A DNA stretch of 64,000 bases from Dehalococcoidia bacterium (GCA_965197645.1 OZ240219.1:1664001-1728000), one strand, 5' to 3'; shown: positions 17,745 through 63,851, counted from the first letter of the stretch. Numbers and translations are program-made. The notes: a model not told the origin generated them from the sequence alone.

Positions 17745-17820
17745 TGGCGCGCCTGAAGGGATTCGAACCCCCGACCCTCGGTTCCGAAGACCGATGCTCT
17801 ATCCACTGAGCTACAGGCGC
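17745..17820 (-). tRNA. tRNA-Arg(UCG)
   Basis: GCGCCTGTAGCTCAGTGGATAGAGCATCGGT-CTTCGGA-ACCGAGGGTCGGGGGTTCGAATCCCTTCAGGCGCGCCA; encoded CCA. Confidence 0.95.
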
Positions 17821-17859
17821 AGACGCCCTCTCCTCCAGGGCATTCCTCTAATGAAAGAC

Positions 17860-17936
17860 TGGGGTGAGCGAGGGGATTCGAACCCCCGATCTCCAGGGCC
17901 ACAACCTGGCGCCTTAACCGCTAGGCGACGCTCACC
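17860..17936 (-). tRNA. tRNA-His(GUG)
   Basis: Cloverleaf with loop TTGTGGC, G-1:C73 pair, GGTTCGAATCC T-arm, encoded CCA. Confidence 0.95.
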
Positions 17937-43183: not shown

Positions 43184-45601
43184 TTGTTCTCTATTCTCAG
43201 ACTGTTAAGGTATTTGCCGAAGGGCAACGCCCTTCGATTGCTGATAGTAGGCGTGATCTTCGTCCTGGGGCTCATGGCCTTGGCGTTCAACGACCTTTCC
43301 CCCTTTGGCATCGACCGGCAGGGGTTCAGGCAAGGGCTGGACATACAGGGCGGGAGCCACCTGGTGTACGAGGCCCGAGCCGACGAGGACGGGGATATCA
43401 ACGTTACACAAGCCCAGATGGAGGGAGTTGCCAGAATCATCCGCAGGCGGGTGGATGCCTTCGGAGTCGCAGAGCCCATAGTGCAGCGGGTCGGCGACCA
43501 TCGGATCATGGTCCAGATTCCCGGAGTAAGGGACGTGGAGAGGGCCAAGAAGCTGATCGGCGCCACGGCCCAACTGGACTTCCGGGAGCAGAGACTTCGA
43601 GAAGACGGCACCCCCGTTATCGATCTGAACGGGAGCATAATCTGGGACCCGGCCATGGGCACCGGTCGCAGCGGGCAGGCGGTGCACCTGACGGGTCAGT
43701 TCATGCTGCCCAACTCCCAGGTGATCGTTGATCCCACGACGAACCTGCCCAACGTGGCGTTTCAGCTCAATGGCGATGGAGCCAGGCTCTTCGAGCAGAT
43801 CACCGAAAGGCTTCTCGGCCAGCCCCTGGGAATCTTCCTGGACGATCTCTTGATTTCCGCTCCCACCGTTCAAGCGGTAATCCGTGAAAACGGTGTGATT
43901 AGCAACCTCAGCTTGGACGAGGCGGAAGACCTGTCCATTGAGCTTAACGCAGGCGCCCTGCCCATACCAATAGAGCTCATCCGGGAGCAGGACGTGGACG
44001 CTACGCTGGGGCAGGAATCGGTGGACAAGAGCATGGTGGCCGCGGTGATTGGCCTGCTGGCCGTGTTGGTCTTCATGATGCTCTACTACCGTCTGCCCGG
44101 AGCGTTGGCGGCGTGCGCCCTGGTGATTTACGGCATCGTGGTGCTTTGCTCCTTCAAGCTGATACCCGTCACCCTGACCCTATCGGGTCTCGCAGGGTTC
44201 ATACTCTCCATCGGTATGGCGGTGGACGCAAACATCCTGATATTCGAACGTCTGAAAGAGGAGCTCAGGTCCGGAAGAAGTTTGAGAGCCGCCGTCGAGG
44301 CCGGATTCAACCGTGCCTGGCCGGCTATCCGAGACAGCAACGTGTCCACCCTGCTGACCTGCGGCATCCTGTTTTGGTTCGGCGATAAGCTGGGTACCCC
44401 GCTGGTGACCGGGTTCGCAGTGGCCCTTGCCATCGGTGTGGTTACCAGCATGTTTACGGCCATGTTCGTAACCCGCAGCTTCCTCCGGTTCTTCATCGGC
44501 CCCAACCTGGAGACCAAGCTGCATTACTTCAACGTGGACAGAAGAGTTCAAAACGATGAAGACCGAGAGGCAGCGCCGGCGGTCGGCAGGTTGGAGAACA
44601 CCCGGCTAAATCTGGTGGACCGGCGGATGTGGTACATCATTATCTCGGCGATAGTGATACTGCCCGGTTTGATGTCCCTGATCTTTCCACCGGCCTTCAA
44701 GCTCGGCATCGAGTTCTCCTCCGGCGCCACTATAGAGGTATCGTTCATCAATCCCCAGGACGTCGGGCTGCGGAGAGAAGCCCAGGTAACCACCTCGGCA
44801 ATCAGGGACGAGGTAGCCAACCTCGGGCACGGGGACGCCATCGTCCAGAAGCTGGGGTCCAACTCGTTCCTCATTCGAACGAAGGCACTGGCCTCCGGGG
44901 AGCTGGACGATCAGGGCAACGTGGGTCCATCAGAGAGCGAGATGATCAAGAATGCCCTGGAGAGGAGATACGGTCCAACCAGCATAGACAAATTCGAGAT
45001 ATCCTTCGTCTCGGCGATTGTAGCCGCGGAATCGGTGCGCAACGCGGGCATCGCAGTCCTCGTGGCTATATTGGGCATCTTCGTGTACATCGCCTACGCT
45101 TTTCGCAAGATGCCCCACTTCTTCCGGTATAGCTTCGCCGCAATCATCGCTCTCTTCCACGACGTGATCATCATCCTCGGGCTCTTCTCCATCTTGGGCA
45201 AAGTCATCGACATGGAGATCAGCACCATGTTCATCACCGGGCTGCTGGCGGTGATCGGCTACAGCATCAACGATACCATCGTAGTGCTGGACAGGGTGCG
45301 AGAGAACGTTCAGAACCGGGCGGGCGAGAGCTTCGAGCAGATAGTGAACAACAGTCTCCTGGAGACCATGGGCCGATCTATGAATACCAGTCTCACGACT
45401 GCGTTCATGCAGATATCTCTGCTGGTCATAGGCGGCGCCACGCTAAAGCCCTTCATCCTCGTCCTGTTTATCGGTACAATAGTCGGGACGTATAGCTCTA
45501 TCTTCATCGCTACGCAGCTGCTGGTTATCTGGGATAAGCAGGAGTTCGGGCAGCTGTGGCGCAGAGTGCAGGTCAGACTGGCCGGAGCCAGGGAAAACTA
45601 G
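43184..45601 (+). CDS. secDF: Fused protein translocase SecDF
   Basis: GLDIQGG, GMAVDANILIFER (SecD); GIEFSSG, GYSINDTIVVLDRVRE (SecF) in one ORF. Confidence 0.95.
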   Translation: MFSILRLLRYLPKGNALRLLIVGVIFVLGLMALAFNDLSPFGIDRQGFRQGLDIQGGSHLVYEARADEDGDINVTQAQMEGVARIIRRRVDAFGVAEPIVQRVGDHRIMVQIPGVRDVERAKKLIGATAQLDFREQRLREDGTPVIDLNGSIIWDPAMGTGRSGQAVHLTGQFMLPNSQVIVDPTTNLPNVAFQLNGDGARLFEQITERLLGQPLGIFLDDLLISAPTVQAVIRENGVISNLSLDEAEDLSIELNAGALPIPIELIREQDVDATLGQESVDKSMVAAVIGLLAVLVFMMLYYRLPGALAACALVIYGIVVLCSFKLIPVTLTLSGLAGFILSIGMAVDANILIFERLKEELRSGRSLRAAVEAGFNRAWPAIRDSNVSTLLTCGILFWFGDKLGTPLVTGFAVALAIGVVTSMFTAMFVTRSFLRFFIGPNLETKLHYFNVDRRVQNDEDREAAPAVGRLENTRLNLVDRRMWYIIISAIVILPGLMSLIFPPAFKLGIEFSSGATIEVSFINPQDVGLRREAQVTTSAIRDEVANLGHGDAIVQKLGSNSFLIRTKALASGELDDQGNVGPSESEMIKNALERRYGPTSIDKFEISFVSAIVAAESVRNAGIAVLVAILGIFVYIAYAFRKMPHFFRYSFAAIIALFHDVIIILGLFSILGKVIDMEISTMFITGLLAVIGYSINDTIVVLDRVRENVQNRAGESFEQIVNNSLLETMGRSMNTSLTTAFMQISLLVIGGATLKPFILVLFIGTIVGTYSSIFIATQLLVIWDKQEFGQLWRRVQVRLAGAREN

Positions 45602-45611
45602 GGGGTAGGAA

Positions 45612-46487
45612 ATGAGAGAGAAGCTGATTCCGCTGGAGCAGGTCAGCAAGCTGGTCCGGGACGGAGACCAGGTGCTGATGATGGGCGGCATGGAGTTCAC
45701 GCCCATGGCCGTCCTGAGAGAGATAGTCAGAGCCGGGGTCAAGGACCTCCACACCGTCGGAGTGGTAGGCGGGGCCATGAACCTGGACTTCCTCATCGGG
45801 GCCGGCGTCACAAACACCGTCGAAACCTGCGACCTGAGCCTGCCCCCGTATGCTCGGGTGGCTCCCAACTACCTGCGATACCAGAAGGCCGGCCGGGTCA
45901 AGATGAAGGACAACACCTGAGGGATCATGTACAGCATGGTCCAGGCTGGATCAATGGGAGTCCCCTTCGTGCCCACCCTTGGATACGCGGGCACCGACAT
46001 CCTTGAGCGTAGAGAGGACTTCAAGGTGATTCCACACCCCTTCGCGGAGGGTGAACGGATTGTGGTCGCCGAAGCCATTACCCCGGACGTGGCCCTCTTC
46101 CACGGCCCCAGGGCCGACAGGTTCGGGAATGTCCTGGCCGCGAATACGGGAGAGGCGCTGACACTGGCGCTGGCCTCCCGCAAGGTCATAGTCTCCGTCG
46201 AAGAGATTGTTGACGAGGTATCACCTCACGACCACGCCGGAGAGTACATACCCGCCCTGAACGTTACCGCGGTGGTGCATGCTCCCTTTGGGGCGCACCC
46301 CACCGGATGTCCCGGTTTCTACGAAGAAGACGTGGCCCACGTACAAGAGTACGTGGAGGCCTCGGCCTCCGACGATGCCTTCTCCGGGTACTTGGAGAGA
46401 TACGTCTTCGGCCCCGGGAGCCACGACTCTTATCTTGATAGGGTCGAGTTGAAGACCGAGGAGAAGGTGCCGGGACCGGTAGGTTAG
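45612..46487 (+). CDS. CoA-transferase-family alpha subunit with in-frame TGA (probable selenocysteine, codon 103)
   Basis: ORFs 45612-45920 and 45927-46487 are in the same frame: ...KMKDNT-TGA-GIMYSMVQAGSMGVPFVP...PDVALFH..RADRFGN; SECIS-like hairpin follows; selB in window. Confidence 0.8.
45921..45964 (+). promoter_or_regulatory. Candidate bacterial SECIS element
   Basis: Lower stem GGGA/TCCC; upper stem CAT-GGTCCA [GGC] TGGATC-A-ATG; apical G about 23 nt after the TGA. Confidence 0.6.
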
Positions 46488-47233
46488 TGTCCACTACCGG
46501 CGCCGACTGCAAACTGGAAGAGTACCTAGCGGTCCTCCTGTCGCGGGAGGTGCGGGACTTCGAGACCTCCGCCTGTGGAGCGCTCTCCTTCATACCGGCG
46601 GCCGGCCTGATCCTCGCCGAGTCTACTCACGCCTCTCACGGGGAGTACATCATCCTCGGCAGCCCGGCTTACCAGCCCTTCGCCTCTCCCAAAGACTTCC
46701 ACTACTTGGCCCAACGCGGGCAGATGGACCTGTTCTTCATCGGGGCAATCGAGATCGATAAGAGGGCGAATTTCAACCTCCACCTGATCGGTGACCCCGA
46801 CGAGCCGGATGTCCGGATGCCCGGCGGATACGGTACGGGCCTGCTTTACTACGCCGTGCCTCGCATCGTGCTGTTCCGTACCAAGCACGACAGGCGGACG
46901 TTCGTGGAAGAGGTCAATTTCGTGTCGGGGGCCGGCACGTCCCCCGAGGGGATAGCCAGGCGAAACCGAGAGGTCAGGGTGATCACACCGATGTCGATTA
47001 TGGAGCTGGACACGGAGACCCGTCTGCTAAAGCTGGTCTCGATACATGCCGGATACACCCTGGACGACGTTCAGGCAAACACTGGATTCGATCTGGGAGT
47101 GGACGGCGAAGCTCCGGTGACGCCTCCACCGACGAACGAGGAACTGACGAGTCTTCGTACCGTAGCGAAGCAGCGGATGATCGAGAGCGATACCTACGCC
47201 GATCTGGCCAGGTCTCTGATCAGAGAGCCCTAG
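46487..47233 (+). CDS. CoA-transferase-family beta subunit
   Basis: DLFFIGAIEIDKRANFNL, RMPGGYG, H..RTFVEEV.FVS, H.GYTLDDVQANTGF; GTG overlaps the alpha-subunit stop. Confidence 0.85.
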   Translation: MSTTGADCKLEEYLAVLLSREVRDFETSACGALSFIPAAGLILAESTHASHGEYIILGSPAYQPFASPKDFHYLAQRGQMDLFFIGAIEIDKRANFNLHLIGDPDEPDVRMPGGYGTGLLYYAVPRIVLFRTKHDRRTFVEEVNFVSGAGTSPEGIARRNREVRVITPMSIMELDTETRLLKLVSIHAGYTLDDVQANTGFDLGVDGEAPVTPPPTNEELTSLRTVAKQRMIESDTYADLARSLIREP

Positions 47234-48326
47234 CCCGTCTCAACCAGCTTTCGTCGAACCCGGGGCCGGTGTAGACGTTCTTGAGGGTGCGGACCCTTTC
47301 GATCCGCTCTTCAGCCAGCCGGTCTGCGGCTTGGGCCGTGGTCACTCCGTCCGCCTTGGACTTGGCTATGACGTTGGTCATCGTATCGTACACGTTGGCG
47401 GTCATGTCCATGGCGGCTTCCCGGCTGTAGCCCCCTATCTCGCACGCCACGGTTATGATCCCGCCGGGATTGATGGCGTAGTCCGGGGCGTAGAGAATTC
47501 CCGCATCGTGGAGCTCTTTGGCGTGCTCATCTTCCAGGAGCTGGTTGTTGGCCGCTCCGGCGACGATGGGGGACTTGAGCCGGGGTATTGTGTCGCTGTT
47601 TAGGACTCCGCCCAGAGCGCAGGGGGAGAAGATATCGCACTCTACGTCGTAGATATCATCAGGGCTGACTATAGTGGCGCCCATTTCGGAAGCCATGGCT
47701 ATTCGACCCTCGTTAATATCGGCGGCGATGATGTGAGCGCCTTCCTCTTTCAGGTACTCGGCGAAGCTGTAGGCGACCTTGCCGAATCCCTGTATTGCTA
47801 CCGTCTTACCCTCCAGCGAGTCTGAGCCGAAGACCTCTTTGCAGCAGGCCTGAGAGCCTTTGTAGATTCCATAGCCGGTGATCACCTCTGCGCCACCCAG
47901 ACCGCCCCGGGCCTCGGGCAGGCCCGATGCGTAGGGCGTCTCCTTCCGGACGTTGACCAGGTCGTCCACCACCGTACCCACGTCTTCAGTGGTGAGGTAC
48001 CGGCCGCCCAGGGTGTTGATGAATCGACCGTGGGCGCGGAACAGAGCTTCGGTCTTATCGGTGTTGGGGTCGCCGATGATGAGGGCTTTGCCGCCGCCCA
48101 GGTCCAGTCCGGCGAGGGAAGACTTGTAGGTCATGGCCCTGGCTAGGCGAAGTACGTCGAGAAGGGCCTCTTCTTCGGTGGCGAAGGGCCACATGCGGGT
48201 GCCGCCACAGGCCGGGCCCAGGGTGGTATCGTGAACGCAGATGAGGGCTTTCAGCCCCGCTTCCTTGTCGGTATAGATGGCCAGCTCTTCGTACTCGTAC
48301 TGGCCCATGTAATCGAAAATCTTCAA
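47220..48326 (-). CDS. Leucine/valine dehydrogenase (Glu/Leu/Phe/Val family)
   Basis: HDTTLGPACGGTR, MTYK, GGGK, EDVG, QGFGKV, PCALG, GAANNQL. Confidence 0.92.
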   Translation of the reverse strand: MKIFDYMGQYEYEELAIYTDKEAGLKALICVHDTTLGPACGGTRMWPFATEEEALLDVLRLARAMTYKSSLAGLDLGGGKALIIGDPNTDKTEALFRAHGRFINTLGGRYLTTEDVGTVVDDLVNVRKETPYASGLPEARGGLGGAEVITGYGIYKGSQACCKEVFGSDSLEGKTVAIQGFGKVAYSFAEYLKEEGAHIIAADINEGRIAMASEMGATIVSPDDIYDVECDIFSPCALGGVLNSDTIPRLKSPIVAGAANNQLLEDEHAKELHDAGILYAPDYAINPGGIITVACEIGGYSREAAMDMTANVYDTMTNVIAKSKADGVTTAQAADRLAEERIERVRTLKNVYTGPGFDESWLRRARAL

Positions 48327-61988: not shown

Positions 61989-63851
61989 TTGTATGTCATA
62001 GGCACAGCGGGACACGTAGACCATGGGAAGTCGGCGCTGGTCCAGGCGCTGACCGGCATCGATCCGGACCGGCTCCAGGAGGAGAAGGAGCGGGGCCTGA
62101 CCATCGATCTCGGGTTTGCCTGGTTGACCCTGCCCAGCGGGCGTGAGGTCAGCATCGTCGACGTTCCAGGCCACGAGCGATTCATAAAGAACATGCTGGC
62201 CGGTGTGGGAAGCATAGACCTGGCCCTGCTGGTTGTTGCCGCCGACGAGGGGGTCATGCCCCAGACCCGGGAGCACCTGGCCATAGTCGATCTGCTCAGG
62301 ATCGACCGCCACCTGGTGGTGATTACAAAAAAGGACCTCGTGGAGGACGACTGGCTGGAGCTGGTTGAGGCCGATATCCAGGACGCCATCGAGGGGACGA
62401 GCCTGGAAGGGGCACAGATAATGGCGGTCTCGTCGATCACGGGAGACGGGCTGGACGACCTGGTGGCTGCCGTCGATGGCATGCTGCAAGAGGCGACCCC
62501 GAAGCAGGATATCGGCAGGCCGAGGCTGCCCATCGATCGCACGTTCACCATATCGGGATTCGGGACGGTGGTAACGGGTACGCTGATAGATGGCAAGCTG
62601 ACCGTCGGGCAGGAGGTCGAGGTCGTTCCGGGAGCGATAAAGAGCCGCATCCGGGGCATCCAGACCCACAAGAACAAGGTGGAGGTGGGGTCTCCGGGAT
62701 CGAGGGTGGCGGCCAACATATCGGGAGTGGGGCACGCGGAGATACGCAGGGGCCAGGTCCTCACTTCTCCCGGCTGGCTCAGAGAGAGCACCGCCGTTGA
62801 CGTTCGACTACGGATCATCCCGGATTGCCCCATCTCGATAAGACATAATGCCGCGGTGACCCTTCACATGGGCACCAGCGAGACGCCGGCCCTGGTGAGG
62901 CTGCTGGACTCGCAGGAGCTGGAGCCGGGCGCCGAGGGTTGGGCCCAGCTGCGGCTCCAGGACCCGATCGCCTTCATCAAGGGAGACCTGTTCATCATCC
63001 GGTCCCATCTGGGGACCCTGGGGGGCGGCGAGGTGGTAGAGACCCAGCCAAAACGGCACAAGCGTTTCCACGACAAGACCGTGGAGCGGCTGGAGGTGCT
63101 GGCTCAAGGTACTCCTGGGCAGGTGTTGATCAAAGTGCTGGAGTCCTCGGAGCCGCTTTCGGTGAAGAACCTCGTTCGAATAAGCACTCTCGCCGAGGAT
63201 ACGGCCAGGGAAGCCGTGCGGGCCCTGCACGAGGAGAAGGGGATAGTGGTGCTGGGAAAGGATGGACTCCAGGGCAATCCTCTCCTTTATTCCTATGCGG
63301 GGTGGCAGACTGTCAGGGAGAACAGTGAGGAGTACCTGCGGGGATACCACGAGCAGAACCCGCTGCGGCCGGGGGCGCCCAAGGAGGAGTTCCGCGGCAG
63401 GTTGAAGCTCTCGGCCCAGGCCTTCCCCCAGGTAATGGAGCGGCTGAAAGAGGAGGCAGTAGTCGTGGAAGAGGGTGCATCGGTGAGGCTACCCTCTCAC
63501 ACCCGGACGGTTAGCCAGGGCCAGCAGCAGGAGATAAACGCCTATCTGAAGGCGCTGGCCGGCAATCCCTTCTCGCCACCGACGGATATATCGATACTGC
63601 CGGAGCTGCTGTCAGGCCTGGTGGAGGAAGGCAAGGTGATCCGGGTCAGTGGAGACGTGGTCTTCGAGGCCGGTGCCTATCAGAAGATGGTCGACCAGGT
63701 GGTAGAGGAGGTGAGAGCGGAGGGCAAGGTGACAGTGGCGAGGGTAAGGGATATGTTCAAGACCAGTCGCAAGTACGCGCTGGCGTTTATGGAGTACCTG
63801 GACCAGGAAAAGATCACCCGTCGGGTCGGGGACGACAGAGTGCTGAGGTGA
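61989..63851 (+). CDS. selB: Selenocysteine-specific elongation factor SelB
   Basis: [33 protein letters not shown]-terminal winged helices ending SRKYA...EYLD...TRRVGD.R. Confidence 0.96.

Follow-up and report, generated by a model that had tools for sequence, protein, structure and literature searches.

A widespread family with the GctA/IpdA-like CoA-transferase fold in Dehalococcoidia is very probably a selenoprotein family

Introduction

Most known selenoproteins are thiol-type oxidoreductases. The 64,000-nucleotide stretch of a Dehalococcoidia genome analysed here (the window) contains a gene for the alpha subunit of a CoA-transferase-like heterodimer that is interrupted by one in-frame TGA, and the question is whether this codon is a stop, an error or a codon for selenocysteine (Sec), and what a Sec residue might do in such a fold. 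A preliminary description, made from the sequence alone, had inferred a selenoprotein. It held that the inference would fail if homologues carried Trp or variable residues at the site, if reads showed TGC/TGG, or if the TGA were unique to this genome and the accompanying hairpin not conserved, and it left selA, selC and selD, the alignment with homologues and the search for a conserved TGA in related metagenome-assembled genomes (MAGs) to be followed up. The inference is now supported by the Sec machinery of the genome, by the pairing of Sec with Cys among homologues and by a conserved hairpin, with selenium insertion itself remaining inferred. On the same footing, the gene pair very probably represents a widespread selenoprotein family of the GctA/IpdA-like CoA-transferase fold.

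Results

The alpha gene contains a single in-frame TGA within a domain

The alpha frame runs from ATG 45612 to TAG 46485-46487, and its sole stop within 45612-46484 is the TGA at 45918-45920, exactly as first described (Table 1). When this codon is read through, the product comprises 291 aa with U at residue 103, in the context ...RVKMKDNT-U-GIMYSMVQAGSMGVPF... (closest residues, ...KDNT-U-GIMYSMVQAG...). The impression that both halves are intact was confirmed by a single Pfam CoA_trans (PF01144) match extending in one stretch over residues 9-223 (67.8 bits; cut-off 23), indicating that the TGA interrupts a domain and does not separate two genes. In an NCBIfam scan of alpha, only two CoA-transferase models were matched, both below cut-off (TIGR02429, 3-oxoacid CoA-transferase subunit A, 36.1 bits vs. 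128.5; NF007394, acetate CoA-transferase alpha, 29.6 bits vs. 315), and no selenoprotein-specific model was among the matches. The G+C content of the window is 59.8%. TGA is the commonest stop among its long ORFs (18 of 38), which means that the codon is not reassigned genome-wide.

Table 1. Positions of the features discussed, counted from the first nucleotide of the window
Feature	Position	Strand	Description
Alpha subunit gene	45612..46487	+	GctA/IpdA-like CoA-transferase fold; 291 codons + TAG, read through one UGA
UGA codon 103, predicted selenocysteine	45918..45920	+	Motif D-N-T-U-G; TGA/Cys pairing at the aligned codon
Hairpin of the preliminary description	45922..45942	+	9 bp, ACA loop; specific to the window
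Conserved SECIS candidate	45937..45953	+	7-bp stem (45937-45943 with 45947-45953), GGC loop 45944-45946
Beta subunit gene	46487..47233	+	248 aa; PF01144 49.5 bits (cut-off 23); without the canonical catalytic Glu
selB, Sec-specific elongation factor	61989..63851	+	TIGR00475, 346.8 bits (cut-off 242.25); 16 kb downstream of alpha

The genome encodes Sec machinery

The genome to which the window belongs is one contig of 3.21 Mb. In addition to selB, which lies 16 kb away as had been noted, it carries selA (547.7 bits; cut-off 267.9), selD (379.7 bits, with one in-frame TGA of its own) and tRNA-Sec (Rfam, 66.4 bits; tRNA-SeC with anticodon tca in ARAGORN), so that the genes left for confirmation are all present. 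The host is in keeping with BSepDB, in which Dehalococcoidia MAGs are among the most selenoprotein-rich bacteria. The selD gene (G000:C1:941844-942767, locus L009, outside the window) is itself a selenoprotein gene, its TGA standing in ...HCAG-U-ASKF.... Weak sub-threshold matches to the tRNA-Sec model at window positions 17749-17936 are most likely ordinary tRNA genes.

The TGA pairs with Cys in homologues and is conserved across the class

A word-indexed search of 5.8 billion proteins returned 1136 matches, the best 120 of which were examined. Residue 103 was spanned by 43 of these 120, with Cys in 41, Glu in 2 and Trp in none. The read-through alignment thus showed the expected Cys/TGA pairing at residue 103, and the homologue motif D[AT]TCPA.HA.LQA of the preliminary description had placed Cys correctly. 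The remaining 77 matches were short proteins beginning at a point equivalent to query residues 105-115, just past the TGA; gene calling had begun them at the first Met downstream of it. Among the best 120, the named fragment entries were titled as Chloroflexi or SAR202 MAG proteins, and the fragment entries came from NCBI, JGI and ENA and included clusters of 163 and 113 member sequences.

Furthermore, 401 genomes sampled from the class of the window were searched with stops read through (E ≤ 1e-20), and matches were obtained in 191 of them. Exactly one in-frame stop, always TGA, was found in at least 54 homologues from 54 genomes, the window's own included, among 150 matches listed; the figure is a lower bound because 114 further matches stood outside this list. 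Each of these 54 was located (26 from the 30 best loci, together with 4 and 24 loci located separately), and in all 54 the TGA occupies aligned codon 103. The other four of the 30 best loci carry TGC or TGT there. Among the matches listed, the 54 genomes fall in nine families (f1, f5, f6, f26, f27, f30, f38, f64 and f84), and identity of the TGA homologues to the window ranges from 65% down to 36%. The tallies for the 401 genomes include one (G243) with only a distant paralogue without TGA, on which no claim rests. The codon is also TGA in six of six named MAG loci (two from the SAR202 cluster, three Dehalococcoidia and one Chloroflexota), one of which (L086) has the same sequence as L022 for 72 nt around the TGA and possibly comes from the same genome. 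The TGA is thus shared by related MAGs and is not unique to this genome, and the site is not occupied by Trp or by freely varying residues, so that the inference is not refuted on either point. In the TGA forms, Sec is flanked as D-N-T-U-G or D-S-T-U-P. One genome (G177) has both Cys and Sec copies of alpha (contigs C238 and C272; loci L042/L084 and L080).

A maximum-likelihood tree was built from 76 rows, of which 50 are locus translations and 26 are database proteins hand-picked from about 270. One clade of 46 rows in it (SH-aLRT 100) has only Sec (26) or Cys (20) at the site. The two forms interleave inside this clade; parsimony gave seven changes of the Sec label, and at least four Sec/Cys changes are forced by well-supported branches. 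The same column in the other 30 rows holds Gly (13), Asn (9), Cys (4), Glu (2), Gln (1) and His (1). Of all alpha positions, just two combine conservation of 90% or more in the clade with less than 30% in the other rows, namely U/C103 (46/46 vs. 4/30) and Gln111 (44/46 vs. 2/30). Sec/Cys103 is the one clade-specific candidate for a catalytic residue of the pair.

The class also holds at least two paralogous alpha/beta subfamilies besides the Sec/Cys type (loci L063-L069 and L051-L062). In an Asn-type paralogue the Sec column is Asn and beta carries a TEDG motif, on account of which it is probably a true CoA-transferase. A Gly-type paralogue shows Gly in that column, and its beta is longer (about 284 aa) and lacks the TEDG motif.

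A short hairpin downstream of the UGA is conserved with covariation

The conserved hairpin was analysed in an alignment of 35 Sec sequences (34 distinct), gap-free from −9 to +62, and was judged by what published bSECIS models require of spacing and loop. Its stem begins 17 nt past the UGA and overlies the codons for V-Q-A-G-S, and its loop lies 24-26 nt after the UGA, with a G in the apical loop. The sequence is UGGUCCA-GGC-UGGAUCA in the window and GGCUCCA-GGC-UGGAGCC in other lineages, and the hairpin was predicted by RNAalifold unguided. Across the 34 distinct sequences, 97.9% of 238 cells in the stem are standard pairs, compared with 10.9-41.6% when the register was slid by 1-3 columns. 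Two stem pairs covary (GU 14, CG 13, AU 7; and UA 20, GC 7, CG 3, UG 1), with a covariation score of 0.302 vs. 0.091 in shuffles and none of 500 shuffles as high. Because related sequences can beat shuffles without any structure, the slid registers and the pair types outweigh the shuffle test.

The hairpin is also coding sequence. Covariation affects the first positions of Val/Ile/Leu and Ser/Ala codons, so that the peptide changes in step with the stem, and five of the seven conserved base pairs sit in codons of the conserved Q-A-G peptide, so that part of the sequence invariance is at the protein level. The case for an RNA structure therefore rests on the two covarying pairs together with the synonymous sites that are fixed in the Sec forms: Ala is GCT and Gly is GGA in 32 of 34 distinct sequences each, where the Cys forms have GCG/GCC and GGG/GCG. 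Moreover, Cys-form loci (n = 5) retain only 3-4 of the seven stem pairs and lack the conserved hairpin, and 24 further TGA loci retain 5-7 of the seven. After the UGA of the genome's own selD there is a comparable stem of 8 bp with a GUA triloop, the loop being at +31 vs. +27 for the alpha hairpin as counted in this comparison.

The preliminary description had pointed to a stem-loop with a G-containing apical loop starting right after the TGA. A stem-loop is indeed present there in the window, but relatives cannot form it and it was rejected as the SECIS element; the conserved element with the G loop is the next hairpin downstream. Conservation, on which the inference had been made to depend, therefore holds with covariation, though for a hairpin other than the one named. 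The two share bases and are thus mutually exclusive, and in isolation the non-conserved one is the more stable (−11.9 vs. −7.2 kcal/mol) and competes in the window. The 81-nt region after the UGA was no more stable than shuffles (z = 0.39), so that support for the hairpin comes from covariation and not from stability. Extensions of the lower stem form in several lineages, but in differing registers, and are not claimed. An Rfam scan of 45600-46500 with E up to 1 returned only a chance sRNA match (18.1 bits; cut-off 50).

These results bear on two explanations that do without Sec. The TGA could be a true stop in a conserved split gene, with alpha made as two polypeptides, one of 102 aa and the other restarted at Met106 or later. 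The C-terminal piece is what gene callers give alone in the 77 fragment matches, and a GAGG-like run follows the TGA in some lineages. However, both halves remain in one frame with the TGA alone between them in 54 of 54 TGA forms, no indels occur from −9 to +62 in the 35 sequences, and the stop coincides precisely with the position of Cys in relatives; Sec and Cys forms are intermingled in the tree, and the D-S-T-U-P lineages have no ATG within the 60 nt shown after the TGA, which leaves a split gene highly improbable. A pseudogene, or an assembly or sequencing error, would account for a single in-frame stop in one assembly, but not for the same codon being TGA in at least 54 genomes and six named MAG loci. 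In addition, contigs from two other studies span the whole 1.8-kb stretch with 95-99% likeness, and none of the 40 differences listed between them and the window touches the TGA or the hairpin (22 further differences lie outside this listing). The chance of decay or error is accordingly close to nil.

The beta subunit lacks the catalytic Glu of class I CoA-transferases

The coupled beta gene had been described as intact, and it is: its GTG start (46487) overlaps the alpha TAG by 1 nt, and the CoA_trans domain is matched above cut-off. A −1 or −4 alpha/beta overlap recurs in most related loci. In a profile of 23 beta sequences, which covers GctB over its N-terminal part, the Glu of the GctB IIVESG motif aligns with Ile56/Leu57 in the window's beta, give or take one column. 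Glu occurs at neither column in any of the 15 Sec/Cys-clade betas, and all three Asn-type paralogue betas have TEDG, an insertion at the catalytic Glu site. The criterion for a class I CoA-transferase, a catalytic Glu of beta in an (S)ENG-type motif, is not met by the window's beta. The ping-pong mechanism of CoA-transferases needs this Glu, and its absence makes that mechanism unlikely here. The heterodimer thus has the class I CoA-transferase fold but is probably not a CoA-transferase, and it is assigned to the non-transferase branch of this fold.

Residue 103 aligns with a Glu of IpdA

The best matches of alpha in the PDB were GctA (1poi_A, E = 2.7e-33) and AibA (5mzw_A, 7e-23), with the IpdA structures more distant (6co6_A, 1.8e-16; 6coj_A, 5e-17; 6con_A, 3.5e-13). 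For beta, a single-sequence search gave IpdB (6co6_B) as the best match, and the profile of betas matched GctB (1.2e-47), AibB (4.4e-41) and IpdB (1.2e-30). Residue 103 faces Gln in GctA, Gly in AibA, Glu in IpdA 6co6_A and Ala in 6coj_A. It is only in this IpdA column that the two deposited Rhodococcus sequences disagree (Glu in 6co6/6co9, Ala in 6coj), indicating that the depositors mutated exactly this residue. It is reportedly the catalytic Glu105 of the ring-opening hydrolase (Crowe et al. 2018, PNAS).

The comparison with IpdAB, the COCHEA-CoA ring-opening hydrolase of steroid catabolism (6CO6, 6CO9, 6COJ, 6CON), shows both likeness and difference. Both systems have the two-subunit class I CoA-transferase fold with an alpha of about 290 aa and a beta of about 250 aa that lacks the catalytic Glu, and in both the distinctive alpha residue occupies the same aligned column. 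In contrast to the Glu of IpdA (6co6_A), this residue is Sec or Cys here, and the similarity is distant (E = 1.8e-16); the steroid genes ipdC, echA20 and fadA6 were not among the flanks scanned, and the host belongs to SAR202/Dehalococcoidia, whereas IpdAB is from actinobacteria or proteobacteria. Thus, the lack of a beta Glu agrees with IpdAB, and neither the Glu at the alpha site nor a steroid C/D-ring gene neighbourhood is found; because Sec103 stands at the site of the IpdA Glu, alpha was not filed as IpdA. According to PMC5380842, IpdB has Gly57 at the position of the catalytic Glu, which is Glu54-beta in the numbering used for GctB, and IpdAB has no CoA-transferase activity and hydrolyses COCHEA-CoA. 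The reaction is termed retro-Claisen hydrolysis in a review (PMC6678751).

GctAB (glutaconate CoA-transferase, 1POI) has the same subunit architecture and is the closest solved sequence for alpha and, by profile, for beta. It differs in that GctB has the catalytic Glu where the window's beta has Ile/Leu and GctA has Gln in place of Sec. AibAB (Glutaconate CoA-transferase family subunits A and B, 5MZW-5N03), presumably a 3-methylglutaconyl-CoA decarboxylase, resembles the pair as a non-transferase member of the fold whose beta lacks the Glu. Unlike the window's pair, it has Gly at position 103 of AibA. AibB carries a Cys in the column of the lost catalytic Glu or the adjacent one, which the window's beta fills with Ile/Leu, and this Cys is the residue that varies among the deposited AibB mutants.

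Gene context is not conserved beyond the family

The pair is flanked in the window by housekeeping genes and an ELFV (Glu/Leu/Phe/Val) dehydrogenase. A fused SecDF gene (43184-45601) ends 10 nt before the alpha start, and the dehydrogenase gene (47220-48326) is convergent on the end of beta with a 14-nt overlap. The order SecDF-alpha-beta-ELFV dehydrogenase was found in family f1 only, at 10 of the 11 f1 TGA loci tested. Clustering of 239 ORFs from 16 regions revealed nothing in common beyond alpha and beta, and Pfam analysis of 20 flanking proteins from eight other loci gave unrelated functions without a recurring theme. Since no neighbour is conserved beyond the family, gene context does not hint at a substrate.

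In two other families, the Sec-type pair stands in possible catabolic contexts that are not common across families (loci L071, 8990-11032, in G350, and L077, 4662-6834, in G074). Two FAA-hydrolase-family genes adjoin the pair in one of them, and an acyl-CoA dehydrogenase, a ketopantoate-reductase-like gene and a NUDIX gene adjoin it in the other.

Short contigs from sponge metatranscriptomes (RNA libraries) matched 45666-45821, 46081-46294 and 46695-46898 at 97-99%. They cover both halves of alpha as well as beta, none spans the TGA, and DNA carry-over is not excluded, so that the evidence is weak. It suggests that sponges harbour close relatives, which may express the pair.

Discussion

We consider it very likely that TGA 103 is a Sec codon, which SelB would decode with the help of the short conserved hairpin 17 nt downstream, and that the full-length alpha of 291 aa pairs with its translationally coupled beta. 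The pattern of a single Sec, Cys homologues, an intragenic hairpin after the UGA and repeated Sec/Cys exchange is shared with known prokaryotic selenoproteins; selenium insertion is nevertheless inferred. Taken as a whole, the locus is best explained as a selenoprotein that is also a non-transferase enzyme with a catalytic Sec. This combined reading is probable, with no direct evidence of selenium insertion.

Within this reading, the chemistry is less certain. The most likely activity, held at about even odds and with both substrate and chemistry inferred, is that the pair binds an acyl-CoA thioester and acts on it as a hydrolase or lyase, transferring no CoA and using the selenolate as catalyst. 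Sec103, or Cys in sister lineages, occupies the alpha position that is Glu in IpdAB. A selenolate is a good nucleophile and a poor general base, so Sec103 cannot simply copy the role proposed for the IpdA Glu. The selenolate or thiolate may instead attack the beta-keto carbonyl (less likely the thioester carbonyl) of the bound acyl-CoA, whereupon the C-C bond would break as in thiolases via an acyl-selenoester, water would hydrolyse this intermediate, and Gln111 might serve as an oxyanion or positioning partner. This specific sequence of nucleophilic attack, retro-Claisen C-C cleavage and hydrolysis of the acyl-selenoester is inferred and is put forward tentatively, as our preferred specific chemistry but on the doubtful side. 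The corresponding proposal for the SAR202/Dehalococcoidia clade, that Sec acts as a covalent nucleophile in a non-redox, thiolase-like retro-Claisen cleavage of a beta-ketoacyl-CoA, possibly alicyclic, is more speculative again and unlikely as it stands.

Two other readings accept a genuine selenoprotein and assign the residue differently. Sec103 could be redox-active and not a carbonyl nucleophile, forming a selenosulfide with CoA-SH or a partner Cys for CoA-disulfide or persulfide handling or for regulation. The site lies within a CoA-binding fold, most known selenoproteins are redox enzymes, and a CoA-disulfide reductase appears in the selenoprotein table of a 2026 review (PMC13188914). However, the flanks D-N-T-U-G and D-S-T-U-P contain no UxxC or CxxU motif, no second Cys is specific to the clade (only U/C103 and Q111 are), and Pfam/NCBIfam scans gave no flavin or thioredoxin-like domain, which leaves a redox role improbable. 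We give still less credence to a heterodimer that remains a CoA-transferase or an AibAB-like acyl-CoA decarboxylase, with Sec/Cys103 as an auxiliary active-site residue. The structural matches speak for it, in that alpha is closest to GctA and AibA and the beta profile fits GctB and AibB better than IpdB. The beta Glu of the ping-pong mechanism is, however, missing in 15 of 15 clade members; GctA and AibA, with Gln and Gly at position 103, do not use this site as the clade does, and the Cys of AibB stands at or next to a column that is Ile/Leu in the window's beta.

The preliminary description had not recognised the fold among the classical bacterial selenoprotein families, and this is consistent with the literature. 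The 119 families and subfamilies of prokaryotic selenoproteins in Table 1 of a review of May 2026 include no CoA-transferase selenoprotein, and PF01144 appears nowhere in its text (PMC13188914). Term searches through the GOS selenoproteome paper, deep-Sep and BSepDB, confined to their main texts, brought up no CoA-transferase family, and no relevant report on CoA-transferase selenoproteins or SAR202 selenocysteine was found in the literature covered, which was judged mainly from listings and excludes supplements, among them that of a groundwater MAG survey. Most likely, this protein fold has not previously been linked to selenium, although an earlier supplementary listing cannot be excluded. 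The 119-family table does include a glutamine-amidotransferase-type selenoprotein with the motif GxUxG (PMC13188914), in which, by our own reading and not by any statement in the table, Sec replaces the nucleophilic Cys of a non-redox enzyme.

If the assignment is true, it adds a new selenoprotein family in a fold without a known selenium link, with Sec at the catalytic position of a non-redox enzyme type. The variation among Sec, Cys, Glu, Gln, Gly and Asn at one column defines subfamilies of the GctA/IpdA group and thereby provides a basis on which chemistry can be assigned. Most close database entries are C-terminal fragments recorded as truncated proteins (77 of the 120 best matches), and metabolic reconstructions of SAR202/Dehalococcoidia therefore miss or mis-score the enzyme. 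Should a C-C-cleaving Sec nucleophile be borne out, the pair would be the first selenoenzyme of the CoA-transferase fold and would tie the supply of selenium to the degradation of recalcitrant cyclic organic matter in an abundant, ocean and sponge-associated lineage.
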